The notes under the pieces are model-generated. The model was not told the DNA's origin and searched no databases. It saw only the letters and a program-made list of their open reading frames with translations. DNA of 64,000 bases from Escherichia coli (GTDB taxonomy: Bacteria; Pseudomonadota; Gammaproteobacteria; Enterobacterales; Enterobacteriaceae), in the NCBI RefSeq assembly GCF_013122565.1, contig NZ_CP053258.1. One strand, given 5' to 3'. Within the stretch, counting starts at the first letter, position 1. Each line of letters opens with the position of its first letter. Positions 12,210 to 46,550 of the stretch are shown in pieces. The position numbers and the translations under genes were made by a program.

Positions 12210-13361
12210 ATGAAAAACAAATTACCGCCATTTATCGAGATTTACCGTGCTCTGATTGCCACACCTTCAATAAGCGCCACGGAAGAGGCACTCGATCAAA
12301 GCAATGCAGATTTAATCACTCTGCTGGCGGACTGGTTTAAAGATTTAGGCTTCAATGTGGAAGTGCAGCCTGTGCCAGGAACTCGCAACAAATTTAATAT
12401 GCTGGCCAGTTGCGGACAGGGGGCTGGCGGCTTGTTGCTGGCGGGGCATACCGATACGGTGCCATTTGATGACGGTCGCTGGACGCGCGATCCGTTTACA
12501 CTGACGGAGCATGACGGCAAGCTTTACGGCTTAGGCACCGCCGACATGAAAGGCTTTTTTGCGTTTATCCTCGATGCGCTACGCGATGTCGACGTTACGA
12601 AGCTTGCAAAACCGCTCTACATTCTGGCGACTGCCGATGAAGAAACCAGTATGGCCGGAGCGCGTTATTTTGCCGAAACTACCGCCCTGCGCCCGGATTG
12701 CGCCATCATTGGCGAACCGACGTCACTACAACCGGTACGCGCACATAAAGGTCATATCTCTAACGCCATCCGTATTCAGGGCCAGTCGGGGCACTCCAGC
12801 GATCCAGCACGCGGAGTTAACGCTATCGAACTAATGCACGACGCCATCGGGCATATTTTGCAATTGCGCGATAACCTGAAAGAACGTTATCACTACGAAG
12901 CGTTTACCGTGCCATACCCTACGCTCAACCTCGGGCATATTCACGGTGGCGACGCTTCTAACCGTATTTGCGCTTGCTGTGAGTTGCATATGGATATTCG
13001 TCCGCTGCCTGGCATGACACTCAATGAACTTAATGGTTTGCTCAACGATGCATTGGCTCCGGTGAGCGAACGCTGGCCGGGTCGTCTGACGGTCGACGAG
13101 CTGCATCCGCCGATCCCTGGCTATGAATGCCCACCGAATCATCAACTGGTTGAAGTGGTTGAGAAATTGCTCGGAGCAAAAACCGAAGTGGTGAATTACT
13201 GTACCGAAGCGCCGTTTATTCAAACGTTATGCCCGACGCTGGTTCTGGGGCCTGGCTCAATTAATCAGGCTCATCAGCCTGATGAATATCTGGAAACACG
13301 GTTTATCAAGCCCACCCGCGAACTGATAACCCAGGTAATTCACCATTTTTGCTGGCATTAA
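12210..13361 (+). CDS. argE: Acetylornithine deacetylase
   Basis: Canonical 383-aa protein starting [35 protein letters not shown]; the ORF-track entry has a 13-aa extension. Confidence 0.95.
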
Positions 13362-19609: not shown

Positions 19610-20488
19610 TTAACCTCCCACGGTAACCTGAAATCCGGCCCGTTCTGCCATTTCGCGCATCGTTGCCACATCAGCTGACGACGGCGCAGGCACCTCTTTC
19701 ATCGACCATGTTTTCCCCAGCAGGCGGTATTTCGGTTCGCCGTACTGATGAAACGGTAACAGATGGATCTGCCTGATATTCAGCGGGATCAGCACGTCCA
19801 GCGCCTGCTGCATATTCTCCCGGCTGAGCGTGAAACCAGGGATCAGCGGTAAACGCGGGATCACGTTGACACCCTCACTCACCAGCAAACGCAGATTCTC
19901 CACCACGCGTGGCAGGTTCATCTTCACCACATCCCGCGCCTGAGTCGCATCCATGATTTTTAAATCGAACAACACTTCATCGCACAATTTCGCCAGTGGT
20001 AACAGCTTGCTTGCTGGCGCGTCTCCGGCAGTTTCAATGGCGCATGACACCCCCCACAGCCGCAGTCGCTGTAAAAAACGGGTAGCAAACTCCGCCTGCA
20101 TTAACACTTCGCCGCCAGAAAGCGTGACGCCGCCGCCGGACGTGCGAAAGAAAATGTCATCTTTCATCACTTCCCGTTCCAGCGCGTCAAGGCTGATATC
20201 GCGACCAATCCGTTCAAACGCCCCGGAGGGGCATTCATCCGCATCACGCAAACATTTCGCACAGTGCAGACATTTCGCCTCTCTGCGTACCGTCTGGATT
20301 TTGCCGGAGATCGACTCCGGATTAGCACACCACGGGCAAAGATGCGGACAGCCTTTAAAAAAGACCACCGTACGAATGCCCTCACCGTCATTCAGTGAAT
20401 AACGCTGAATGTTGAAAATGCGCGCCACATCATTGCGGCGCGTTTCCACAACGTTACAGCTGATGCGCTGTCCGGCGGATGATGTCAT
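19610..20488 (-). CDS. pflC: Glycyl-radical enzyme activating protein (pyruvate formate-lyase 2 activase) PflC
   Basis: Radical-SAM CxxxCxxC motif (FFKGCPHLCPWCANPE); canonical 292-aa protein starting MTSSAGQRISCNVVETRR. Confidence 0.9.
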   Translation of the reverse strand: MTSSAGQRISCNVVETRRNDVARIFNIQRYSLNDGEGIRTVVFFKGCPHLCPWCANPESISGKIQTVRREAKCLHCAKCLRDADECPSGAFERIGRDISLDALEREVMKDDIFFRTSGGGVTLSGGEVLMQAEFATRFLQRLRLWGVSCAIETAGDAPASKLLPLAKLCDEVLFDLKIMDATQARDVVKMNLPRVVENLRLLVSEGVNVIPRLPLIPGFTLSRENMQQALDVLIPLNIRQIHLLPFHQYGEPKYRLLGKTWSMKEVPAPSSADVATMREMAERAGFQVTVGG

Positions 20489-22751
20489 CCTGGATCTCCT
20501 TCGACAGTTCGACAAAGAAGGCGCTGTATCCGGCAACGCGCACCACCAGCCCGGCATAATCTTGTGGGCGCTGTTGCGCTTCCCGCAACGTGTCGGCGTT
20601 CACCACGTTAAACTGAATATGTTGTAACTTAAGCTGGGTAAACGCCCGTAAGAAGTCGGCCAGTTTGCGTAATCCCGCTTCACCTTCCAGGGTCGCCGGA
20701 GTGAATTTCACGTTCAGCAACGTACCGTTAGACAGCAGTGTGTTATCGAGCTTACTGACTGACTTCAGTACCGCCGTTGGCCCTTGTGCGTCCTGGCCCA
20801 GCATGGGTGACAAGCCGCCGTCTGCCAGTTGTTCCCCGGCAAAACGACCGTCTGGCGTCGCACCAACCACCGATCCCAACGGGACGTGAGCAGAAACGGT
20901 ATACGATCCCGGCGTGAAGTAGCCGCCGCGCGGGTTCTGGTATTTTTCCACTTCTTTGCAGTAGTGGCGTAACAGTTCGGCGCTGATGTTATCCACCTCG
21001 TCGATATCGTTACCGTATTTCTCAAAGCGGTTAATTAAGCGAGCGCGGACTTTTTCGCCTTCTGGCGTTGCGAAGTTGGCTTTTAATACCGACAGCAATT
21101 CGTCAAAACTTAAACGCTGTTGATCAAAAACCATCCCTTTCAACGCATGGAGAGAATCGCTCAGGTTGGCGATACCGATCCCCTGTACGCCGGAGAAGTT
21201 ATAACGCGCGCCGCCATCGGTAATATCGCGGCCTTTTTCCAGACAATCGCTGATAAACGATGAGAGCAGCGGTACAGGTGCCCAGTCGCGATGGCCGATA
21301 TCACAAATATTGCTGCCCTCAACCATCAGGGTGATGTAGTGGCTGATCTTGGCGCGGATCTGCTCCAGTAAACCTTCATAAGTCAGCGCAGCATTGCCTT
21401 CATTTTCATGCAGGCAGATTTCCATCACTTTCAGCAGATTAAACATCGCGATGTCATGCAAGCCGTAGGTTCTGCCGGGAATAGATAATTCCACACAGCC
21501 CACTACGGAATAGTCGCGCGCATCTTCCAGCGAAACGCCACGGTTGAGGAACGCTGGCACCACCACTTCATCGTTAAAGATTTGCGGAATACCGGTGCCG
21601 AGGCGAATGGTTTCGGCGGTTTTCATCAGGAACGGCGTGTCGATCAAGGCGTTAGTGCGCACGCCGAGGTTCGGTTGCGGTAATTGCACGCTTTGATAAG
21701 CATCGAGGCAAAGGAATGAAAGCACGTTCACCGCGCTACGTCCGTTCTCGGTTAACCCGCCGAGCAGTGCGGTATAGCCGGTCGGGAAACCTGCGAAATA
21801 ACGCGCGCTGCTGGTGGAGCGCAACAGCACGATGTCGTTGCATTTCACCCATAAAGATTCGAGCAGTTCTTTCAGGAACGCCGGATCTTCGCCCTGGGTT
21901 AAAGATGCCTGATAGAACGGCAACATATACTGGTCGAAGCGCCCTAAAGACAGCGAACTGGCGTTGGATTCGTATTGCAGAATGATGTTCATGTACCAGA
22001 ATAACTGGCACGCCTGCCAGAACGTCTGCGGCTTATGTTGCGCGTTATGGCGGGAGATCTCCGCAATAGTCAGCAGCTCTTAGCGACGCTGGGCATCTGT
22101 GCAGTTTGCCGCCATCGTTTCCGCCAGTTCGGCGTAACGCAAAATGTGTTTCTGCGAGGCTTCCAGCAGTAACAGCGCTGCCTGATAAAAGTAATTCTCC
22201 GGCTGTTGCTGACAATGTTGCTGCATCTGCGCCACCAGCTCCCCCAGCCCGTGATTCAGCAGGCGCGGGTAATCAATAATAATGTGCCCCTGGCCTTTAT
22301 CCGTCTGGTTGATGCTGAAAATCTGCGTGCTGGTCGCGGCTTTTACTTCATCCGTCATCTGCCCGTTGATGAAATCTTTCATCGAACGTTTTTCCCAGTA
22401 CGGGAACAACTCTTCGCGGTAGATACGTTTATCTTCTTCGCTGATAGCAAAGCGGTCCTGCGGACGCGTCGGGAACTGGTCCAACTCTTTCAGCAGCCAG
22501 TAAGGATCCATTTCCGGCGACATAATCCCGGCGCGTGGTTTCACCGTGCGGTTACCGGCAATCAGTTCTTCATCACGAATCGAAATTTCAACATGTTCAA
22601 GGATATACGCTGTTGCTTTCGCCCGGCGCAATATCACCGGTTCGCCTTCGGTTTGCCGATGGCTGGCGGTATAAAGCAGCGCACGCTCCAGCGAGATTTC
22701 ACGGGTATTGGCAAACAGTGCAGTTTTGAGGCGAGAGATACGATTCGTCAT
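20454..22751 (-). pseudogene. pflD: pflD (glycyl-radical enzyme, formate acetyltransferase 2) interrupted by a single in-frame TAA stop
   Basis: ORFs 22080..22751 (223 aa, N-terminal) and 20454..21992 (512 aa, C-terminal) are in the same frame. Reading on past the TAA at 22080..22082 gives continuous protein-like sequence (ELLTIAEISRHNAQHKPQTFWQACQLFWYMNIILQ...). Total span of 766 codons matches the 765-aa full-length enzyme. Confidence 0.8.
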
Positions 22752-34580: not shown

Positions 34581-34623
34581 ATCGTTCTTGCGCAGTCATC
34601 TGCGCTATTCGGGGGAAATCAGC

Positions 34624-36123
34624 ATGGGTCTGATATCGAGTGTCGTAAAATCACTTTCTAAACTGTCGATGATTGGTCGCGCGCTGATGCTGCCAATTTC
34701 GCTTCTGCCTGCCGCCGGGTTGTTGCTGGCGTTCGGCGATAAATTCCACATGCCGTTGATGATGAATGCCGGCGGTATCATTTTTGATAACTTGCCGATG
34801 CTTTTTGCTATCGGTTCTGCCGTGGGACTGGCTTCAGAATCGGGTATTGCGGCGCTATCCGCAGCTGTATCCGTCTTTGTCACTAATATCACCATCGGTA
34901 CTGTCCTTGGCATCACACCAGAGATGGCCGGGCAAGGCGGTAAATATGCGATGGTGGTGGGGATCCCAACGCTGCAAATGGGCGTCTTCGGCGGCCTGAT
35001 ATGCGGGGTTCTGGCGGCGTGGTGTTACAACCGTTTTCATACCATGCAATTACCAGAATTCCTTGGCTTTTTCTCCGGCAAACGCTTCGTGGCTATCGCG
35101 ACGGCTTTTCTTTCCTTCATCCTTGGCTTGTTACTGCCCTATGTCTGGCAACATATTCAGTCGGGAATCGATGCCCTATCAGTTATCGTCAATGGTGATA
35201 ACCAGGCGGCATCGACCTTTATTTTTGGTGTGACAGAACGTGCGCTCATTCCGCTTGGCCTGCACCACATCTGGTATCCATCGTTCTGGTACTCTTTTGG
35301 TGATTACACCACCCAGGCAGGCCAAATGATCCACGGTGACCAAACAATTTGGTTCAAAATGCTGGAAGAAGGTGTGAAATCGTTCAGTAGCGACAGCTAC
35401 CATAACGCGGGTAAGTTTTTACAGGGCGAGTTCCCGCTCATGCTGTTCGCGCTGCCTGCGGCGTGTCTGGCGATGTACCATGAAGCACACACCAAAAATA
35501 AGAAAATTGCCGCCGGTATTCTGTTCTCTGCCGCATTAACCTGTTTCCTGACAGGTATTACAGAACCCGTTGAATTTACCTTTATTTTCGTGGCACCGGT
35601 ACTGTACGTATTCAACGCGATAATGGCTGGCCTCTCCTATATGGCGATGTATCTGCTCCATGCCCATATTGCAAAATCCTTCTCGGCAGGGCTTATCGAT
35701 TATATTTCGTTTGGCATCCTGCCATCATTTAACGGCTACGAAACCAACTTCCTGAGTGCCATTATTGTTGGCGTACCGATGGCGATTATCTATTACTTCA
35801 CTTTCCGCTTTGTTATTCGCCGTTTTGATGTGAAAACACCGGGTCGAGCCGAAAGCACCGTATCCGCTAACGATAAAACCGATGATGAACTGGCTACGGA
35901 AATTATCAGTCTGCTGGGCGGCCAACAAAATATCTCTTCCGTCGCATCCTGCATAACACGCCTGCGTCTGGAAGTGGCAGATAAGGATGTAGTTGATAAA
36001 GATGGACTGAACAATGTCGGTGCTCGTGGTGTGGTTTTTGTCGGCGATAACGGCATTCAGGTGATTTTTGGCGCACGTGCACAATTTATCGCGCAAACCA
36101 TGTCGACGATGATTGGCAAATAG
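34624..36123 (+). CDS. PTS glucose-family EIICB component, sugar specificity unknown; accessory
   Basis: About 499 aa from MGLISSVVKSLSKLSMIGRALMLPISLLPAAGLLLAFGD, preceded by a GGGGGA Shine-Dalgarno. A PtsG/MalX-like EIIC domain is followed by a C-terminal EIIB domain with the phosphorylatable Cys motif SCITRLRLEV. The ORF-track start at 34588 is probably too far upstream. No EIIA gene is adjacent. Confidence 0.85.
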   Translation: MGLISSVVKSLSKLSMIGRALMLPISLLPAAGLLLAFGDKFHMPLMMNAGGIIFDNLPMLFAIGSAVGLASESGIAALSAAVSVFVTNITIGTVLGITPEMAGQGGKYAMVVGIPTLQMGVFGGLICGVLAAWCYNRFHTMQLPEFLGFFSGKRFVAIATAFLSFILGLLLPYVWQHIQSGIDALSVIVNGDNQAASTFIFGVTERALIPLGLHHIWYPSFWYSFGDYTTQAGQMIHGDQTIWFKMLEEGVKSFSSDSYHNAGKFLQGEFPLMLFALPAACLAMYHEAHTKNKKIAAGILFSAALTCFLTGITEPVEFTFIFVAPVLYVFNAIMAGLSYMAMYLLHAHIAKSFSAGLIDYISFGILPSFNGYETNFLSAIIVGVPMAIIYYFTFRFVIRRFDVKTPGRAESTVSANDKTDDELATEIISLLGGQQNISSVASCITRLRLEVADKDVVDKDGLNNVGARGVVFVGDNGIQVIFGARAQFIAQTMSTMIGK

Positions 36124-36196
36124 TCATAAGATTACGCTTTGTTGGAGGTTCTGGTCCCTGACTGGAACCTTCGTACTTATTGTTCAGGGAGTGAAG

Positions 36197-37213
36197 TTGA
36201 AGAAAGTCAGCATAATTGATGTTGCCAAAAGCGCAGGAGTCTCGGTCTCTACTGTGTCGCTGGTCCTGCGCCAGAAAGGCAAAATTTCCGAGGCAACCAT
36301 CGAGAAAGTTCATGCTGCCATTACTGAGCTTGGCTACGTGCATAATGTTGCCGCCGCCAATTTACGCTCCAACACTTCAAATCTTATCGGTCTGATTTTA
36401 CGTGATTTTAGCGATAGCTTTTCCATCAAAGTGATGGCAAGTATTGTTCAGGAACTGGAAGCACAAGGATATATGGTTTTCCTCGGGCAACCACAGAACG
36501 AGCATGAACATCTTGAACGCTGTTTGCTTTCCTTCAAGCAACAAGGTGTTGCCGGAGTGATTTATCTGGCTTCCGATGCGCAGCGTGAAACCTTACCCGC
36601 GCTGATTCGCCAGTGCCCTCTTCCTCTTGTCGTCGCCTCACAATCCCCCATCAAAGATGAATGCAATCTGGTATTGCGCGACAACCAGCAGGCGGCAAGC
36701 CTTGCCACGCGTTATTTAATTGAGCGTGGACATCGTTACATTGCCTACCTCGGCGGCAGAGAAAGCGATCTTATCCGCCAACAGCGACTGGTGGGTTTTC
36801 GCCAGACCCTGGCAAAATTCGGTATTGCCAGTCGTGACGAGTTCACGCCAGCCTGTGACGATGATACATACGCCGCCAGCATGGCCACGCGCCAGTTGCT
36901 GGAGAATAACAATGCCATCACCGCCCTACTCTGCCATTCGCCCGAGGCCATGATTGGCGGTATCAACGGCATACATCAGGTGGGGCGCACCGTCGGGAGA
37001 GACATCTTTCTGACCCAGCAGGTGGCGCTAATTGGTTTTGAAGATATGCTGCACATCAATCTGACCTCGCCCGTTTTCACCTATGTCTCTTCCGCCAGTG
37101 AAGAAACCGGACGCCAGGCTGCTAATCTAATAATCCGCAAGTTAAAAGACCCGGAGCTGCAAATTCAAAGAATTGCGCTTTCCGGGCAACTGGTAGTGCG
37201 GGAATCGGCGTAA
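36197..37213 (+). CDS. LacI-family transcriptional regulator; accessory
   Basis: The N-terminal HTH (KKVSIIDVAKSAGVSVSTVSLVLRQKGKIS) is the LacI/GalR signature, followed by a periplasmic-binding-protein-like sugar-binding domain. The likely start is TTG or GTG at 36191..36197 after AGGGAG, giving about 338 aa; the ORF-track start at 36113 overlaps the EIICB gene. Confidence 0.8.
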   Translation: MKKVSIIDVAKSAGVSVSTVSLVLRQKGKISEATIEKVHAAITELGYVHNVAAANLRSNTSNLIGLILRDFSDSFSIKVMASIVQELEAQGYMVFLGQPQNEHEHLERCLLSFKQQGVAGVIYLASDAQRETLPALIRQCPLPLVVASQSPIKDECNLVLRDNQQAASLATRYLIERGHRYIAYLGGRESDLIRQQRLVGFRQTLAKFGIASRDEFTPACDDDTYAASMATRQLLENNNAITALLCHSPEAMIGGINGIHQVGRTVGRDIFLTQQVALIGFEDMLHINLTSPVFTYVSSASEETGRQAANLIIRKLKDPELQIQRIALSGQLVVRESA

Positions 37214-37336
37214 TTATTTCTGCCAGTCTCCGTCTTTAGCCGGCGGTCATCGCCACAACTGCACTGATGGATATGGTATTCTTTCGAGTATCTTTGCGGG
37301 CACTAACGCCAGGAGTATCGCCATGAGAATGGCGCG

Positions 37337-38818
37337 ATGAACACAGGGAATTTCGAGTCGATACAAATCATACTCGACGCGCAAGAGTGGCGTAGCCTGC
37401 CGCTGCATCTGCGTCTGTATCACGCTTTTCGCCAATTGGTGATTTCCGGCGCGTTGTCTGATGGCGCAAAGCTGCCGTCCGCTCGCGCACTGGCCCAGCA
37501 ACTTGGTCTTTCCAGAGATACCGTCGAAAATGCCTATTCCCAGCTTCAGCGCGACGGTTTTATGACCCGCAGGCAGGGAGCCGGGAGTTTCGCCAGCCGC
37601 CAGGGGATCCCGCAAATTCAGGGGCAGCACGCTCAGCCCCCCTCGCCCGGACAAGCACCGGCATTAACCGCCCGCTGGCAGCCGATTGCCGATCGCGCCG
37701 TCTCTTTCGATGCCCGCCAGATGCAGACCTTTACGCTTGGCCTGCCGGAAACGCGAAACTTCCCGCTAAACATTTGGCAGAACTTTTCCCGCCAGATCCA
37801 ACGTGAGCAGGCGCATACGCTGATGTTAAATAGCGATCCGCAGGGCGAGCCGGAGCTGCGCCAGCAAATTGCGCATTACCTTAATTTTGAACGCGGCGCG
37901 AAGGTAGATGCAGAGCAGATTGTGATTGTCAGCGGCGCACGGCAGGCGTTCTGGCTGTGCGGGCAACTGCTGGCAGAGGCCGGGCAATCAGTGGCGATGG
38001 AAAATCCAGGCTATCCCGGCGCGCGTCAGGCGTTTTCTGCCGCACAGCTTAATCTTCTTCCCGTTGAAGTGGATGACGCCGGGATCCGGGTGGATAAACT
38101 GCCGCCCGCACCGCTGGTTTACGTCACGCCGTCGCACCAGTTTCCTTCTGGTCATTTGCTCACGCTGGCGCGCCGTCACGCCCTGATTGCCTGGGCACAG
38201 GCGCACAATGCGTGGATTATTGAAGACGACTACGACAGCGAATTTCACTACACCAGCGCGCCCGTCGCCTGTCTGCAAGGGTTAGACTGCGAGCAACGCA
38301 CCCTGTATGTCGGCACTTTCAGCAAAACGCTCTATCCTGGTTTGCGCATTGGTTATCTGGTGGTGCCTGCCTCGCTGGCTGCGCACTTTGCCGCCGCACG
38401 TAATTTGCTTGATGGCGCAACGCCTGCGTTATCCCAACTGACGCTGGCGCGATTTATCGAGTCCGGTCATTTTGCCGCCCATATTCGCACCATGCGCAAT
38501 ATGTACGCGGTGCGACAGGCGAGCCTTGCAGAGGCTATTCATCAGCACTTAAGTGAATGGGTCACGCCAGTGGTGACATCCGGTGGATTACAAATGCCCT
38601 GCTGGCTGCATGAAGATGTTGATGAGCAACAGACGCTGAACGCGGCGCGCCGCGCCGGGTTAAATATCGCCGGGATGCGCCAGTTCTGGCTGACGCACCC
38701 CGCGCCCGCGGGCTGGCTGCTGGGATTCGCCGCCTTTACCCCCTACGAAATTGAGCAGGGAGTCAAGCGTCTGCGGGCTGCATTATGCGCTGAAAACGTG
38801 CGCCCAGCCGGGTCATAA
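37337..38818 (+). CDS. MocR/GabR-family transcriptional regulator (GntR HTH fused to a PLP aminotransferase-like domain); accessory
   Basis: 493 aa. The N-terminal winged HTH (LYHAFRQLVISGALSDGAKLPSARALAQQLGLSRDTVENAYSQLQRDGF) is followed by a long aminotransferase class I/II-like domain. Confidence 0.8.
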   Translation: MNTGNFESIQIILDAQEWRSLPLHLRLYHAFRQLVISGALSDGAKLPSARALAQQLGLSRDTVENAYSQLQRDGFMTRRQGAGSFASRQGIPQIQGQHAQPPSPGQAPALTARWQPIADRAVSFDARQMQTFTLGLPETRNFPLNIWQNFSRQIQREQAHTLMLNSDPQGEPELRQQIAHYLNFERGAKVDAEQIVIVSGARQAFWLCGQLLAEAGQSVAMENPGYPGARQAFSAAQLNLLPVEVDDAGIRVDKLPPAPLVYVTPSHQFPSGHLLTLARRHALIAWAQAHNAWIIEDDYDSEFHYTSAPVACLQGLDCEQRTLYVGTFSKTLYPGLRIGYLVVPASLAAHFAAARNLLDGATPALSQLTLARFIESGHFAAHIRTMRNMYAVRQASLAEAIHQHLSEWVTPVVTSGGLQMPCWLHEDVDEQQTLNAARRAGLNIAGMRQFWLTHPAPAGWLLGFAAFTPYEIEQGVKRLRAALCAENVRPAGS

Positions 38819-39869
38819 TCTCATACGGGATGGTGTCGCAGGCAGCCGCAACCTCTTCCAGCGTCTGGCCTGTGCCAATAAACTCCACCTTATCGCCCGC
38901 CGTCGGCGTGACGGCGCTGGCATCGACCATAAAGCTGTCCATACACACCCGCCCCAACACCGGTAACCGCACCCCGCGCCAGCATACGCCCGCCGGAGGA
39001 CGCATATTTCGCGGAACGCCATCCGCGTAACCCGCGGATATCGTGGCGATACGCAGCGGACGCGTGGCGGTAACCGTGCTGCCGTAGCCAACTGGCGTTC
39101 CGGCCGGAACATCCTGCACGCGCAGTATGGTCAGCGTCAGCGTAAAGACCGGTTTTAACGGCCTGGAAAACCACGGCTGGGTGACGCCAAACAGCGCAAT
39201 CCCCGGACGGCAGAGATCTTCCCGCCAGCCCGAGTGCAAAAACATCCCGCAGGAGTTCGCCAGCGAAAATCGGCTGCTGGGGAAAACCGTTTTTGCCTGC
39301 TGAAGTCGCGCGTGTTGCGCCATATTTAACGCATGATCCGGCCTGTCGGCGTTCGCCAGATGGCTGATGATATAATCCGGCGCAGGCCAGTTACGCTCAC
39401 GAAAAATCGCCGCCAGACGCATCAGTTGTTGCGACATCACGCCCAGCCGCGACATCCCGGAATCGAGCTGAATCATCACCGCACGCCGCTGCTGGCGCGT
39501 TTCCAGTAACGTAAGCCACGCCATCACCTGGTCTACGGAATTGAGCAATGGCGTGATCTGCTGCGCGTAACAAAATGCCATCGCCTCCGGCATAACCCCA
39601 TTAAGCACCACCACCCGCGCATCAGCGGGCAAGCATTTACGCAGCGCCACACCTTCAGAAAGCTGCGCGACAAAAAAGATCCGGCAGTTCGCCGCATACA
39701 GGGCGGGAGCAATCGCCTCCGCCCCCAGACCATAGGCATTCGCCTTCAACACCGCGCCACATTGCGCACGGGCAGCATGGCGGGCCAGGGTGCGATAATT
39801 TTCGACAATGGCGGCGAGATTGACGCACATAACGCCGCACGCCGCCTGAATTTCAGCAAGAGTTATCAT
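38763..39869 (-). CDS. Alanine racemase-family PLP enzyme (fold type III); accessory
   Basis: 368 aa. Contains the PLP-lysine motif [11 protein letters not shown] near the N-terminus and an Alr-like C-terminal beta domain. Overlaps the MocR 3' end by about 56 bp (convergent) and the downstream SHMT-like gene by 4 bp. Confidence 0.8.
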
Positions 39870-41104
39870 TGATAAGGCAACGGATAGCGGTTGGTTAGTT
39901 GTATTACTTTTTGCTCAATATCGGCGCAAATGTCTGCAATATCTGACGCGTTAATGGCCAGAATGATTTCACTTATCCAGTCAGCAATAAGCGCAAAGTC
40001 ATCCGCCTGCATCCCACGCGTGGTGCAGGCCGCGCTGCCAATACGAACGCCGGAGGTAATCGACGGCGGCTGCGGATCGCCCGGCAGGGTGTTTTTATTA
40101 ACCGTGATCCCCGCCAGTTCGAGAAAATACTCTACCTGTGCGCCGGTTAACCCCTGCGGGCGCAGGTCGATAATCCCCAGATGGCAATCGGTGCCGCCCG
40201 TTAACAGCGTCAGACCGCGCTGCGCCAGTTGCTGGCACATCGCCTGCGCATTGTCGATGACCTGCCCGGCATAACGTTTAAATTCCGGTTGTAATGCCTC
40301 GCCAAGCGCCACCGCTTTCGCCGCGATAACGTGCATCAACGGCCCGCCCTGCAAACCGGGAAAGATGGCGCTGTCGATTTTTTTCGCAAGCCGGGCGTCG
40401 TTGGTGAGGATCATGCCGCCGCGCGGCCCGCGCAACGTTTTATGCGTGGTGGTGGTGACCACATCAGCATACGCCAGCGGCGAAGGGAAACAGCCGCCCG
40501 CCACCAGCCCGGCAAAGTGCGCCATATCCACCAGCAAAATGGCGCCCACGGCATCGGCAATGCGGCGAAAACGGGCAAAATCATAGCGGCGTGGATAAGC
40601 CGATCCTCCGGCAATAATCAACCGTGGGCGCTCACGCAGCGCGATCATCTCGACTTCATCCATATCAATCAGGCCACTATGGGCATCGACGCCATAGTGA
40701 AAAGCGTTAAACCATTTGCCAGATTGATTGACCGGCGAACCGTGCGTGAGATGCCCGCCGCATTGCAGGCTCATGCCAAGAATTTTGTCGCCGGGTTTCA
40801 GCAACGCCAGATAGACCGCCTGATTCGCCTGGCTGCCGGAGTGAGGCTGCACATTGACGTAACGTGCGCCAAAGAGTTGCTGGGCGCGGGTTATCGCCAG
40901 CATCTCAACCTCATCAATAAACTTACAGCCGCCGTAGTAGCGATGCTGGTAATAACCTTCGGCGTATTTATTGGTTAACACCGACCCCTGCGCCGCGAGA
41001 ACAGCGGGGCTTACGAAATTCTCCGAGGCAATCAGTTCCAGCGACTACTGCTGGCGCTGTTGCTCCTGGTTAATCAATGCAAAAAGTGGATCGTTATTTA
41101 TCAT
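39866..41104 (-). pseudogene. Serine hydroxymethyltransferase (GlyA)-like PLP enzyme with an in-frame amber stop at codon 20
   Basis: Reverse-strand translation from ATG at about 41104 gives [50 protein letters not shown]..., then continues through the SHMT signatures HSGSQAN and [16 protein letters not shown]. The TAG is at about 41045..41047 where GlyA has Glu. The ORF-track entry is only the 371-aa reinitiation product from GTG at 40981. Confidence 0.75.
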
Positions 41105-41337
41105 GCGCTTCCCCCGAAAATTCATCATGCGATGATTTTCGCAGGGAAAACGTCGCCCGCACCCTGCCACTTTTTAGAATGAGCGCAGACCACCTATGTC
41201 GTTTTACTTAAAAGAAGAGGGAAGAAGGCTCCAGGCATCTCCATATGCGATTCTGGTTGGTAATACATCATATTCCAGCTGCTCTTATCTGCCTACGTTA
41301 TTGCATAGGCAGAATAAGGCAGCCTCAATACGTACTT

Positions 41338-42891
41338 TTACTTGATATATTTCACGCGCATACCGTTGATCTGTTCATCCGTGATGGTGTTACCCGCTTT
41401 GAAGTAATCAACCACGGCGTGATAAACGTAATAACCGCCCGTTGTGTTACGCGCTTTCCCTTCGGTAAAGGCGGTAAAACCATCTCCACCATCAGCAAGG
41501 AAACTCTGGGTGGCAATAGAATAAACTGTCGCATCTTCAATGGGTTTGCCATTCAGAGTCAGTGTGATTACCCGCTGACCAACCGGCTTGCTGCTGTCGT
41601 ACTTCATTTCCAGGCCTTTCGATACCTGTAAAACGCCATTACTTAAACTTGCGCCGTGTTCCATCAAACTGCGTAATTGTTTCCCTGTGAGATCCATCGT
41701 CACCAGTTCGTTGGGGAACGGGAAGGTACTGATGACGCCGCCCATCGTAATCGCCCCTGCGGGGATCTCATTGCGAATACCGCCAGAGTTGGTTAAGGCT
41801 ATTTGGGTGTTTTTACCCGCCGCTACCAGTAAAGCGTCAGCCGCCAGGTTCCCGAGGGAAGCCGATTCACCATAGGCACGTTTTAATTCAACCGGCGATT
41901 GCGCCACCGTTTGTTGCACCACTTCATCAAGCTTTTTATTCCAGCCGTCGATCACCTGTTTTGTTTGCGGATCGGGCTTCCACTCGTCGGCGTAAATGGT
42001 TTTCAGCTCGAAGTTTTTCACCGTAAAATCATGCGGCTTCTCTTTGTAGTCGAGGACCAGTTTGCCCACATCAATCCCGCCGCTGTCAGTGGAGAGGATG
42101 AGCGTATTGCCGACTTTAATCGGTTCCGGCGTACCCACATGTGCATGTCCGGTGATCAAAATATCCAGCCCTTTCACCTGACTTGCCGTCTGAATATCTT
42201 TATCCAGTGCGCGACGCACATCGGTCCCTCCCATACTGGACTGGCGGGCCGGAACACCTTCATGGATCAGGGCGACGGTCAAATCAACCTTGCCTTTAAG
42301 TTCATCGATATAACGTTGTAGCCATTTAATTTCATCGCGCGCTTCAATACCCACGCGCGTGGCAGCAGATACCGTATCGTTGAAAGCAAATACTCCGTGC
42401 AAACCTATAACGCCTATTTTCACGCCGTCTTTTTCGATGATGGTATATGGCTTATCCCAGAATGATTTACTGCTGTTCTGATAAAAAACATTGCCCTGCA
42501 CAATAGGGAATTTTGCCTGACTCAACTGTAATAATGTGTTGTCCCAGCCGTGGTCAAATTCATGGTTGCCTATCGTGACGGCATCAAACGGCATAGTATT
42601 CATAATATCGATAATAGCCTTACCTTTGGTCAGGCTGCTGATATATGGCCCGGTAAAATAATCACCCGCATCAAAAAACCATGTCGCTTTATTTTTTGCT
42701 TTTTCTTGCTTAACCAGCGTAGTGATATTTGCCCAGCCGCCAATATCCCGTTTACCGTCAGCGATCCACGGCACTTTATAAGGCTCGACATGCGCATGGA
42801 GGTCGTTGGTATAAATGATGGTGACATCTTTGGCGCAAGCCCAGAACGGCAATGTTAATGCGATACCCGCAGCAAGTATTTTAATTTTCAT
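41338..42891 (-). CDS. Secreted metallophosphoesterase / 5'-nucleotidase-family protein (UshA/CpdB-like); accessory
   Basis: 517 aa with an N-terminal signal peptide ([20 protein letters not shown]) and calcineurin-like phosphoesterase motifs ([36 protein letters not shown]), followed by a C-terminal 5'-nucleotidase-type domain. Confidence 0.8.
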
Positions 42892-43023
42892 AAATAGTCC
42901 CTTTCAGTGATTTAAAGGATTGCTACATTACGTTCTGAAAGAGTTATTTATGTGAGAGTAATCACATCCGCAGGGGATAGTTGCCGGACAAAATCAACGA
43001 CCTTGTGAAATCGTTGGTGATAT

Positions 43024-44154
43024 ATGTCAACTCTGTTTACGATTAATGCCTGCAAGTCGTTTGGTTGCCGTAATTTAGGGCAACCAACATCGACAGATTA
43101 CAGCTGGCCAGACTATCGACTGGGTTATCCGGCACTGCACTGTCGGGCATGTGGAAGTTACCCGCCGTTGTTTGACGAACAGCAATTTCGTGACTGGTTG
43201 TCAGTTCACTTATCTACTTTTGCAACTGAGAAAGGTCATTTCTGCCCGGTATGTTATGGCACAAAGACGATTTGTTATGGCCACAATCCACAGGGGTCGC
43301 AACGCATTCAATGTCGTAACTGCAAAAAAGTCTGGACACCTAAACAATATCAGAAAGAAATAACGCCTCCTGAAATAATCGAAACGGTTGCTCTTCTGGT
43401 GCCATTTCAGGGAGCCAGCAATGGGCAGAAACTGTATGTTTTAATCAGTTTTGATGCTCTTCGCGGTAATATTCTTCATCTTTCTACTAATTACACGCAG
43501 CATCAGGCTGGAGAAAGTCTGCATTATCGATACAGAGGAAATGCAGAACCAGAGTTACACGAGAGTAATATTGTACAACGCGTTGATATGCGCGAAGCAC
43601 AATTTCTACGCCGCAGTCAGTTTGATGAAATTCAGTATGGCAGCGCAGCGCTCAAACGCAATGCTAAAGGTATTATTCTGCGTCCGGTTATCACTGCACA
43701 CGGGCATTTCAGAGTACTGAATATTTTATTCCCTACAGTAAAAACACATGTAATTTCACACGAGTGTTTTTTAAGAGGTGCCATTATTACGGCATGGGCT
43801 GATCTGTTTCGCCAACAGCAAGGTGAAATTTGGTTTATTGAAGAGGAAATAGCTGACTATACCGATAATATGCCCTGGAGTTTTCAGGGAACAACATATC
43901 ACGGCTGGTGGAAAAATCAGTGGCAACTTTGGGGTCAGGGCAAAAATCGTAAAATGGTATGTGCATTAACAGGCGGAAATAACAGCAAAGCTGAAATGCT
44001 CTCTTTCGCAACCAGCAGACATTTTATCGACTGGCTACATAAACAAGCAGTATTTACTCACAGCACCCCGCTTTCCGCAGGGCGCGTTACGCAAATACTG
44101 CTTTCTCTGGCTCAGGATTACAACAACTGCGCCAGCCGGTTGATATCCGACTGA
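43024..44154 (+). CDS. Cys-rich protein with two N-terminal zinc-ribbon motifs (IS1 InsA-like finger), rest unknown; accessory
   Basis: 376 aa. Motifs C-x5-C...HC-x2-C and CPVC...GSQRIQCRNCKKVW; the latter resembles the IS1 InsA zinc-finger region (from memory). The last 12 codons overlap the metL 3' end on the opposite strand. Confidence 0.6.
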   Translation: MSTLFTINACKSFGCRNLGQPTSTDYSWPDYRLGYPALHCRACGSYPPLFDEQQFRDWLSVHLSTFATEKGHFCPVCYGTKTICYGHNPQGSQRIQCRNCKKVWTPKQYQKEITPPEIIETVALLVPFQGASNGQKLYVLISFDALRGNILHLSTNYTQHQAGESLHYRYRGNAEPELHESNIVQRVDMREAQFLRRSQFDEIQYGSAALKRNAKGIILRPVITAHGHFRVLNILFPTVKTHVISHECFLRGAIITAWADLFRQQQGEIWFIEEEIADYTDNMPWSFQGTTYHGWWKNQWQLWGQGKNRKMVCALTGGNNSKAEMLSFATSRHFIDWLHKQAVFTHSTPLSAGRVTQILLSLAQDYNNCASRLISD

Positions 44155-46550
44155 ATCGCCCCGGCGGTGACATCGCGCCCTGCGCCTGGTCCGCGGATCA
44201 CCAGAGGGTTATCGCGATACCAGCGGCTTTCGATGGCAAAGACGTTATCGCACGGCAGCAGTGATGCCAGCGGATGATCTTCACGCACCGCTTCCACGCC
44301 CACACGCGCTTTGCCGTTGGCATCGAAACGCGCCACGTAGCGCAGCACCAGCCCCATTTCGCGGGCCGCTTCCAGCCGTTGCAACATCTGCTCGTTGAGT
44401 TCATCGCCGTTTTCAAAGAAATGGTCGATGCTACCGCCTTCGCAATGGGCAGGCACCAGCGATTCCACGCGCACCTGATCCGGTTCGATGTCGTAACCCG
44501 CTTCACGCGCCAGAATCACCAGCTTGCGCATTACGTCTTTGCCGGAGAGGTCGTCACGCGGATCAGGCTCGGTTAAGCCCTGCTGCCACGCCTGATCCAC
44601 CAGCTCGGTAAACGGCACGCTACCGTCGAATTGCAGGAACAGCCAGGAGAGCGTGCCGGAGAAGATCCCACTGATCGACAAAATAGTATCGCCGCTGTCG
44701 ATCAGATCGCGCACGGTGTGGTTGATCGGCAAGCCCGCGCCGACGGTAGCGTTGTACAGCCAGTGACGCCCGGTTTTTTCGAAGGCGTCGTGGATCTGGC
44801 GATATTTATTGCTGTCGCTGGCTCCTGCCAGTTTGTTGGCGCTAATGACGTGGAAACCGTGGCTGGCGAAATCGAGATACTGGTCAGCAAGCTGCTGGCT
44901 GGCGGTAACGTCCAGCACCACTAAATCATCATACGGATGGGCGCGCATCCACAGGAACAGCGACTCTTCATCCTGCTCAACCGCTTCATCGTTGAAGAAG
45001 GCTAACGCGCGGCTGGCGTCCAGCCCGTCATAACTCAACAGGCTGCGGCGGCTGTCCACCACGCCTGCCAGCACAAATTCAAAGCCGGTACGTGCCGAAA
45101 GCGTGCTCTGCTCACGGGCGAACAGTTCCAGCCAGCGGGAACCGATATTGCCCTTGCCGAACAATACCAGGCCGATGCGTTTTTCCGCGCGGAAGACGGA
45201 CTGATGCAGCCCCTGAATCAGGCTTTCGGTCGGGCCGGTGCGCAGAACTGCCACCAGGCTGATGCCGTCATCGGACTGCCAGGTAAACTCGACCGGCTGG
45301 CCTTTCAGTTGCTGCCAGAAGCGGTGGCAATGCAGCGGGTTACGGGTGACACCCGCCCCGACCATCGCCACCAGCGCCAACCCCTGACGCAGGCGCAGCT
45401 CGCCAGGTAATCCCGCTTCGTCTAGGATTTTCAGCGCACTGTCGGCCACTTCTGAGGTGTAGCAAAATTGCAGCAACTGGCGATCGTTATGCACGCCAAC
45501 CGCCAGTGGGCGCACCTGCGCGCGTTTCAGGATCTGGTCGATCTCTTTATGCGCCAGTTTGAAATCCTGGCTGGCGGGCACCTGAAACTCAATCAAGCAG
45601 ACATCGTCGTGGCTGGTGACAATACGCGCACCAGTACCGGAGGCCAGCACGCGTTCAATGCGCGTGGAACCTTGATCCGGCGTGTAGCTACAGCGCAGTT
45701 GCAGGTCAATTTCGCTGCCTGATACCGGCTGTAAAGTACGGGCGTGGAGAACCGGAGCCGCCAGACGCGCCAGTTCGCTGGCTTCATCCAGACGCAGCAA
45801 CGGCAACAGGCAGGCATCTTTCACTTTACGCGGGTCGGCACTGTATACCCCGGCGACGTCGCTCCAGATGGTTACACGAGAAACACCCGCCAGCGCACCG
45901 ATTTGTGTCGCGGAGTAGTCGGAACCGTTACGCCCCAGCAGCACCGTTTCACCGGCGTTGTTACGGCTGATAAACCCGGTCACCACCAGACGTTTACCCG
46001 GATGTTGTACCAGTAGCTGTTGCAGCAACGGGTAAGAAAGCCCTTCATCAACCTGCGGCTGCGCAGCGCGTTCAGCGCGTAAAAACTCGCGGGCATCAAG
46101 CCAGGCCGCTGGCAGCCCTTGTTGATTAAGTACCGCAGACATCAGGCGCGCCGACCACACTTCACCATGGCCCACCACTTCCGCATACACCGCATCGTTA
46201 ATACCGCTGTCGAGCAGCGCCGCCAGGCGCTCAAGATCGCTGACAAAAGCGCTAATGAGGCTATCGGCTTCTTCAGCGGGTAGCAGACCGCTAATCAGAT
46301 CGCACTGATAGCGACGCAGCGTTTGTTGAACCTGATGCGCAGAGAGACGATCGGTCTGGCTTAGTTTCAACCAGTTAATCAACTGGTTAGTGGTGCTACC
46401 AGCGGCGGAAACCACCATCATATCGTCAGGCTGAGAGTACTCCGCCATAATGCCCGCGACACGCAAATAACACTTCACATCAGCCAGACTACTGCCACCA
46501 AATTTATGCAGTTGACGACCTTTCGCCCCTGCCTGCGCAATCACACTCAT
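44118..46550 (-). CDS. metL: Bifunctional aspartokinase II / homoserine dehydrogenase II
   Basis: 810-aa ORF MSVIAQAGAKGRQLHKFGGSSLADVKCYLRVAGIMAEYSQ... ending ...INRLAQLL. Confidence 0.96.
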   Translation of the reverse strand: MSVIAQAGAKGRQLHKFGGSSLADVKCYLRVAGIMAEYSQPDDMMVVSAAGSTTNQLINWLKLSQTDRLSAHQVQQTLRRYQCDLISGLLPAEEADSLISAFVSDLERLAALLDSGINDAVYAEVVGHGEVWSARLMSAVLNQQGLPAAWLDAREFLRAERAAQPQVDEGLSYPLLQQLLVQHPGKRLVVTGFISRNNAGETVLLGRNGSDYSATQIGALAGVSRVTIWSDVAGVYSADPRKVKDACLLPLLRLDEASELARLAAPVLHARTLQPVSGSEIDLQLRCSYTPDQGSTRIERVLASGTGARIVTSHDDVCLIEFQVPASQDFKLAHKEIDQILKRAQVRPLAVGVHNDRQLLQFCYTSEVADSALKILDEAGLPGELRLRQGLALVAMVGAGVTRNPLHCHRFWQQLKGQPVEFTWQSDDGISLVAVLRTGPTESLIQGLHQSVFRAEKRIGLVLFGKGNIGSRWLELFAREQSTLSARTGFEFVLAGVVDSRRSLLSYDGLDASRALAFFNDEAVEQDEESLFLWMRAHPYDDLVVLDVTASQQLADQYLDFASHGFHVISANKLAGASDSNKYRQIHDAFEKTGRHWLYNATVGAGLPINHTVRDLIDSGDTILSISGIFSGTLSWLFLQFDGSVPFTELVDQAWQQGLTEPDPRDDLSGKDVMRKLVILAREAGYDIEPDQVRVESLVPAHCEGGSIDHFFENGDELNEQMLQRLEAAREMGLVLRYVARFDANGKARVGVEAVREDHPLASLLPCDNVFAIESRWYRDNPLVIRGPGAGRDVTAGAIQSDINRLAQLL

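Follow-up and report, generated by a model that had tools for sequence, protein, structure and literature searches.

An amber codon at position 20 of an accessory serine hydroxymethyltransferase gene in Escherichia coli points to a recent, strain-specific pseudogene

Introduction

Is a gene that is interrupted at its twentieth codon, and otherwise keeps the length and motifs of its family, dead or still in use? The question is raised by a serine hydroxymethyltransferase (SHMT) paralogue, here called SHMT 2, that occupies positions 39866-41104 on the minus strand of a 64,000-nucleotide stretch of the Escherichia coli contig NZ_CP053258.1 (NCBI RefSeq assembly GCF_013122565.1; the whole of this stretch is referred to as the window). 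An initial annotation, prepared by a model from the letters and a list of open reading frames, offered two answers: a recent nonsense pseudogene, or an N-terminally truncated protein made from an in-frame GTG downstream of the stop. Here we present evidence that SHMT 2, an accessory paralogue, is very probably a nonsense pseudogene of recent origin, specific to this strain and created by one C>T transition in an E. coli that carries the cassette to which the gene belongs.

Results

Translation of the SHMT 2 frame, which begins with an ATG at 41104, ends with a TGA at 39866 and counts 412 codons with both stops included, revealed a single internal stop, the amber codon TAG at codon 20 (41045-41047, minus strand). 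ELIASEN, HSGSQAN and every other active-site motif are kept in the frame. Profile and structure searches were performed on the protein made with glutamine put back at codon 20. In this form it scored 612.5 bits against the NCBIfam model NF000586 (curated cut-off 335), placing it within the family, and residues 7-409 matched profile positions 4-403 of 404. A search of the PDB matched solved SHMT structures at E values of 1e-140 to 1e-157. The initial annotation had described a full-length SHMT frame with conserved motifs and a TAG at codon 20, and both the translation and the profile score bear this out. What the locus does not contain is an uninterrupted full-length SHMT coding sequence: the longest open frame has 371 codons and begins at a GTG at 40981.

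Aligned with an E. coli GlyA sequence, SHMT 2 is 55% identical over 405 residues. The alignment sets a register in which the GlyA number equals the SHMT 2 number plus 8, in agreement with the match to PDB entry 1dfo (query 7-409, chain 15-415). Codon 20 therefore aligns with GlyA Glu28, the glutamate that the initial annotation had placed there. The lysine that binds pyridoxal 5'-phosphate (PLP), in the motif TTTTHK, and all of the PLP- and substrate-site residues listed in PMC7916883 are retained.

Alignments of orthologues showed what codon 20 encodes elsewhere. It reads CAG in E. coli 2013C-4282, WL297 and RMDEC465 and in E. fergusonii ATCC 35469, and CAC (His) in Salmonella enterica, and a degenerate DNA scan of metagenome-collection contigs returned two contigs with CAG or CAC and no TAG allele. 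The orthologues in E. coli RMDEC465, E. fergusonii and Salmonella are 411-412 amino acids long. Because the orthologues hold CAG or CAC at this position, the lesion is a single C>T transition at 41047 that converted CAG (Gln) into TAG (hereafter Q20*). The initial annotation had likewise found codon 20 consistent with a single-base change and had asked whether GAG or CAG stands there elsewhere; the single-base change holds, and the ancestral codon in true orthologues is CAG and not GAG. It had also allowed that orthologues might all carry the same stop, which is not the case, the codon being CAG in Escherichia and CAC in Salmonella. Thus, as expected of a nonsense pseudogene, the stop sits where orthologues hold a sense codon, in a frame that is otherwise without a stop or frameshift.

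The stop is also present in a second assembly. An exact-protein look-up recorded the 371-amino-acid product of the GTG start on one contig only, in a Logan assembly of sequencing run SRR11451224. This contig is identical to the window at 13107 of the 13107 bases fetched, the TAG included. The recurrence of the same TAG in a second assembly makes an assembly artefact unlikely. From its occurrence in these sequences, the TAG allele looks essentially private to one clone.

To date the lesion we compared the window copy with other alleles. When the window copy is paired with an intact or other allele, the ratio of nonsynonymous to synonymous substitution rates (dN/dS) is 0.07-0.09; over all pairs the range is 0.07-0.12. 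Seventeen nucleotide positions set the window copy apart from the other alleles compared. The nonsense change accounts for 1 of them, 5 underlie four amino-acid replacements and the remaining 11 are synonymous. Relative to the aligned alleles, the window copy has neither indels nor frameshifts. The low dN/dS and the absence of frameshifts indicate that the stop is recent, and the substitution pattern suggests that SHMT 2 was under purifying selection until very recently. Taken together, the sense codon in all orthologues examined, the dN/dS against intact alleles and the TAG in the second assembly favour the first of the two answers offered by the initial annotation, a recent nonsense pseudogene.

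We next consider what the stop would do to expression. The native ATG at 41104 is preceded by the Shine-Dalgarno (SD) sequence GGGGGAAG (41108-41115, minus strand), whose duplex with the anti-SD sequence (-8.6 kcal/mol) is the strongest in the region. Translation from this strong native start would end after a 19-residue peptide, and no functional SHMT 2 would be expected beyond trace near-cognate read-through. Such a loss would be tolerated because E. coli has the housekeeping glyA elsewhere.

The lesion probably also affects the gene that follows SHMT 2, which encodes an alanine racemase paralogue. The racemase ATG (39869-39867) overlaps the SHMT 2 TGA (39868-39866) as ATGA and has no SD sequence (+1.2 kcal/mol). 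Among E. coli gene pairs with a four-nucleotide overlap, four of five tested were translationally coupled, and premature stops in full-length upstream open reading frames destabilised bicistronic transcripts (PMC6728339). Because the ATGA overlap lacks an SD sequence and Q20* lies upstream, the stop probably silences the racemase too: the gene would lose most of its translation through lost coupling, and transcript destabilisation or polarity would also be likely.

SHMT 2 is an accessory paralogue and not the housekeeping glyA. It belongs to a 4.1-kb presence/absence cassette (37215-41337) located in a variable region between metF and metL, together with the alanine racemase and a MocR-like regulator. 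In the closest E. coli backbones (98%, e.g. UTME-7), homology to the window breaks off exactly at 37214, with the stop codon of malI, and is picked up again at 41338, with that of the 5'-nucleotidase gene; 72 unrelated bases stand where the window has the cassette. The SHMT 2 gene was found in 3 of 5426 complete E. coli genomes, namely 2013C-4282, WL297 and RMDEC465. The gene order 5'-nucleotidase, SHMT, alanine racemase, MocR-like regulator, metF, katG is common to these three carriers, E. fergusonii and Salmonella enterica.

The same gene has been damaged elsewhere by other lesions. E. coli 2013C-4282 and WL297 carry Q281* (CAG>TAG), labelled "internal stop" by the PGAP annotation pipeline (C6996_RS16685, QU520_RS21260), and the corresponding 280-residue product occurs on 271 contigs. 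In a Paratyphi A-type Salmonella (VOFL01000128.1) the gene has a frameshift near residue 206, and at least 1000 contigs encode a 221-residue SHMT product named from Paratyphi A and Sendai. Further alleles from Salmonella either lack 30 residues through an in-frame deletion that spans the VDMAH active-site region or carry a 322-residue truncation. The picture is of an ancestral enteric accessory cassette that hardly any E. coli retain and that is breaking down bit by bit in its remaining carriers, with Q20* as one step in its continuing loss from Escherichia. As a separate observation, a Typhi allele of SHMT 2 (P0011) reads TATTHK at the TTTTHK motif.

Repeated inactivation raises the possibility that loss of SHMT 2, and of the alanine racemase by polarity, was selected as an adaptive knock-out, which would explain the recurrent inactivations and deletions. 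Escherichia and Salmonella between them show at least four lesions of independent origin, and 5423 of 5426 complete E. coli genomes lack the cassette. However, the same pattern would be expected if a niche-specific accessory gene decayed neutrally, and intact copies are under strong purifying selection (dN/dS of 0.07-0.12). We therefore regard adaptive loss as unlikely. It is compatible with a recent strain-specific pseudogene and differs from it in the cause of fixation alone; the data fit adaptive loss and neutral decay alike.

The second answer offered by the initial annotation, a functional truncated isoform through which the gene would still be used, fared worse, and we judge it very unlikely. 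Such an isoform would have 371 residues if begun at GTG 40981 (40979-40981, minus strand) or 345 if begun at ATG 40903 (40901-40903, minus strand; Met68, codon 68), a second possible internal start that is present in all orthologues. The GTG does exist and opens a 371-codon frame, although it is the Val42 codon and so lies 22 codons after the TAG and not 26 as initially annotated. The frame after the TAG is intact, an SD-like AGGGG (40989-40985) precedes the GTG (-6.0 kcal/mol), a GAGG precedes the ATG (-6.3 kcal/mol) and in the Logan assembly a gene caller began the gene at the GTG. Ribosomes that restarted in frame would also reach the ATGA junction with the racemase gene.

Against this, Escherichia alleles whose N-terminus is intact have exactly the same GTG and upstream bases, and Salmonella has GTA. 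Since the GTG and AGGGG are shared by intact alleles, they are mere coding sequence for QGSV and not a change specific to a restart. The spacing between AGGGG and GTG is just 3 nucleotides. The gap from TAG to GTG is 63 nucleotides, whereas a gap of about 20 nucleotides already almost abolishes termination-reinitiation in E. coli (PMC10666635). SHMT 2 residues 1-41 correspond to GlyA 9-49, so that the GTG product would start at GlyA residue 50. It would be without the N-terminal arm, the bulk of the 38-52 interface segment and Ser35, the PLP-site residue in ELIASEN (PMC7916883). In E. coli SHMT the N-terminal arm wraps around the partner subunit (PMC7916883). The complete family members listed are 409-439 amino acids long, and NF000586 is matched from profile position 4. 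Neither the start nor its SD-like sequence is conserved as such, and there are no short family members among the homologues listed. A little truncated polypeptide may be made, but the features of the frame argue that a functional enzyme is unlikely, and the proposed protein from GTG 40981 thus finds no positive support.

It is highly improbable that the TAG arose through an error of sequencing or assembly or during laboratory passage and that the natural strain has CAG. The allele has been seen in one genome lineage only, as an artefact would predict, but the separate SRR11451224 assembly has the same base inside 13.1 kb of perfect identity. Moreover, one base has been substituted for another outside any homopolymer, whereas typical long-read consensus errors are indels.

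Finally, the amber codon might be decoded by a suppressor tRNA, programmed read-through or recoding, so that full-length SHMT 2 would still be made. Near-cognate or supE-type suppression of UAG inserts glutamine, which would restore the exact ancestral residue in a frame undamaged downstream. However, the stop is absent from every orthologue examined and is thus not a programmed site; no tRNA genes lie in the 64-kb window; the second nonsense codon, in pflD, is an ochre TAA and does not indicate a shared amber-suppressor background; and pyrrolysine machinery is not known to occur in Enterobacteriaceae. An Rfam scan of 37000-45000, covering the leader and the surroundings of the stop, found no RNA family, riboswitch or recoding element, with two sub-threshold chance matches. 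Decoding of the stop is extremely unlikely.

The intergenic sequence upstream of SHMT 2 was also inspected. A scan of 39700-41500 for promoters and terminators gave counts no better than shuffled sequence, with two promoter matches observed against 1.3 +/- 1.2 in shuffles. A sigma-70-like match upstream of the SHMT 2 start, TAGGCA-17-TATGAT (41267-41295, minus strand), is no commoner than chance. An imperfect hairpin (41267-41334, minus strand) directly follows the 5'-nucleotidase stop codon and gave a sub-threshold, microRNA-like Rfam match of 24 bits; it is probably a terminator or an element resembling a repetitive extragenic palindrome between the 5'-nucleotidase and the SHMT operon. In RMDEC465, the spacer between these genes carries a 41-bp insertion slightly downstream of the hairpin position.

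The other two genes of the cassette are intact. The regulator, a MocR/PdxR-like PLP-dependent transcription factor of 493 amino acids (37337-38818, plus strand), scored 435 bits against NF052282 (cut-off 320). The racemase, "alanine racemase 3" (38763-39869, minus strand; 368 amino acids), scored 236.6 bits against TIGR00492 (cut-off 168), and its protein is identical to QJU26048.1/WP_171460023.1 from E. coli. The two genes run towards each other and share 56 bp at their 3' ends, an arrangement also found in E. coli 2013C-4282, E. fergusonii and Salmonella.

Outside the cassette, the contents of the metF-metL region vary. Between metF and the cassette the window has genes for a glucose-family phosphotransferase system (PTS) EIIBC component and a MalI-like LacI-family repressor (34588-37213, plus strand). 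In place of this pair, the three E. coli cassette carriers have a gene for a 324-residue hypothetical protein, and they also have two extra 5'-nucleotidase paralogues beside metL. The combination of metF-metL genes seen in the window was not found in any genome of the collection. The differing contents among carriers indicate that the region is mosaic.

A second gene in the window is also broken by one in-frame stop, as the initial annotation had pointed out. The pflD gene (20454-22751, minus strand; 765 codons) is otherwise full length, but a G>T transversion has turned codon 224 (22082-22080), GAA in reference E. coli, into TAA. Over the 301 bases surrounding this stop, the best match among the complete E. 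coli genomes of the collection reaches 98.7% identity. Among 37 backbone genes compared with E. coli UTME-7, all are colinear without indels and pflD alone is interrupted. The SHMT 2 and pflD lesions are unrelated in type, one being an amber C>T change and the other an ochre G>T change. We considered an amber-suppression background linking the two stops and rejected it, since the pflD stop is TAA from GAA and the window has no tRNA genes. An unusual pseudogene density was rejected as well: the backbone comparison with UTME-7 showed the pflD stop only, and the pseudogenes of the window are 2 of about 55 genes, an unremarkable density for annotated E. coli genomes.

Discussion

In summary, SHMT 2 very probably represents the ordinary strain-specific inactivation of a dispensable accessory gene, and lesions of this kind are already flagged as "internal stop" by annotation pipelines. 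Some points weigh against this account. The SRR11451224 assembly may share its isolate with the window, in which case it excludes a consensus or assembly artefact and not a mutation that arose in the sequenced culture. Some de novo initiation could occur at GTG 40981 or ATG 40903, given duplex energies of -6.0 and -6.3 kcal/mol. A suppressor tRNA could be encoded elsewhere in the genome, since the tRNA search covered the 64-kb window. For the racemase, one of the five E. coli pairs in PMC6728339 was uncoupled, and the polar effect is accordingly inferred.

These results bear on how the locus should be annotated. The appropriate label is that of an accessory SHMT paralogue reduced to a pseudogene, neither a 371-residue SHMT nor glyA, and the alanine racemase downstream should be treated as probably silenced. 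More broadly, the metF-metL cassette offers a view of a gene loss that is still under way: Salmonella and E. fergusonii have retained it under constraint, nearly all E. coli have lost it by deletion, and the few remaining E. coli carriers have been hit by different single-base knock-outs.

The role of the MocR-associated pair of SHMT and racemase could merit targeted study. Our literature searches on SHMT pseudogenes in typhoidal Salmonella, and on MocR together with alanine racemase and SHMT, found nothing specific to this cassette. Genes of the GlyA family turn up repeatedly in MocR-type regulons whose function is unknown (PMC5320631). With the SHMT coupled through ATGA to an alanine racemase, the cassette may serve a pathway in which D-alanine is made or used, and one candidate activity is that of 2-methylserine (alpha-methylserine) hydroxymethyltransferase, EC 2.1.2.7. 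This enzyme is SHMT-like, depends on PLP and tetrahydrofolate, and has D-alanine as a substrate or product (PMC7918591). Its likeness to SHMT 2 is one of description, in that the link to D-alanine would fit the coupling to alanine racemase. A broader proposal holds that the cassette encodes a niche-specific pathway and not a second GlyA, for instance one that transfers a hydroxymethyl group to or from 2-methylserine or in another reaction yielding D-alanine, that its repeated losses in E. coli and host-restricted Salmonella were selected and that Q20* is one convergent hit; as a whole we consider this unlikely.

Comparison with known systems places the window copy among its relatives. SHMT 2 belongs to the same fold family as E. 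coli GlyA (PDB 1dfo; PF00464/NF000586), and the GlyA residues Ser35, Tyr55, Glu57, Tyr65, His126, Asp200, His203, Thr226, His228, Lys229, Arg235 and Arg363 are all conserved in it. Unlike GlyA, SHMT 2 lies in a variable island beside an alanine racemase and is broken by the TAG at codon 20. Among solved structures it is closer to the cyanobacterial, Thermus and Bacillus SHMTs than to GlyA, and its closest relatives outside the enterics, at about 65% identity, bear names from Achromobacter, Bordetella, Mesorhizobium and similar genera and are likewise SHMTs.

Within the enterics, the E. fergusonii ATCC 35469 protein named "Serine hydroxymethyltransferase 2" (CAQ91260.1) is a true orthologue, with 96% nucleotide identity and the same gene order, and Salmonella enterica orthologues (e.g. 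the 412-amino-acid P0122, on 606 contigs) have 89-90% nucleotide identity and also the same gene order. Both differ from the window copy in being intact, with glutamine or histidine at codon 20. The closest parallel is the SHMT pseudogene of 2013C-4282 and WL297, which shares with the window copy the gene, the cassette and the type of lesion (CAG>TAG). Its stop is at codon 281 and not at codon 20, however, which marks it as an independent event, and the Q281* allele is widespread (271 contigs) whereas the window allele was found once outside its source genome.

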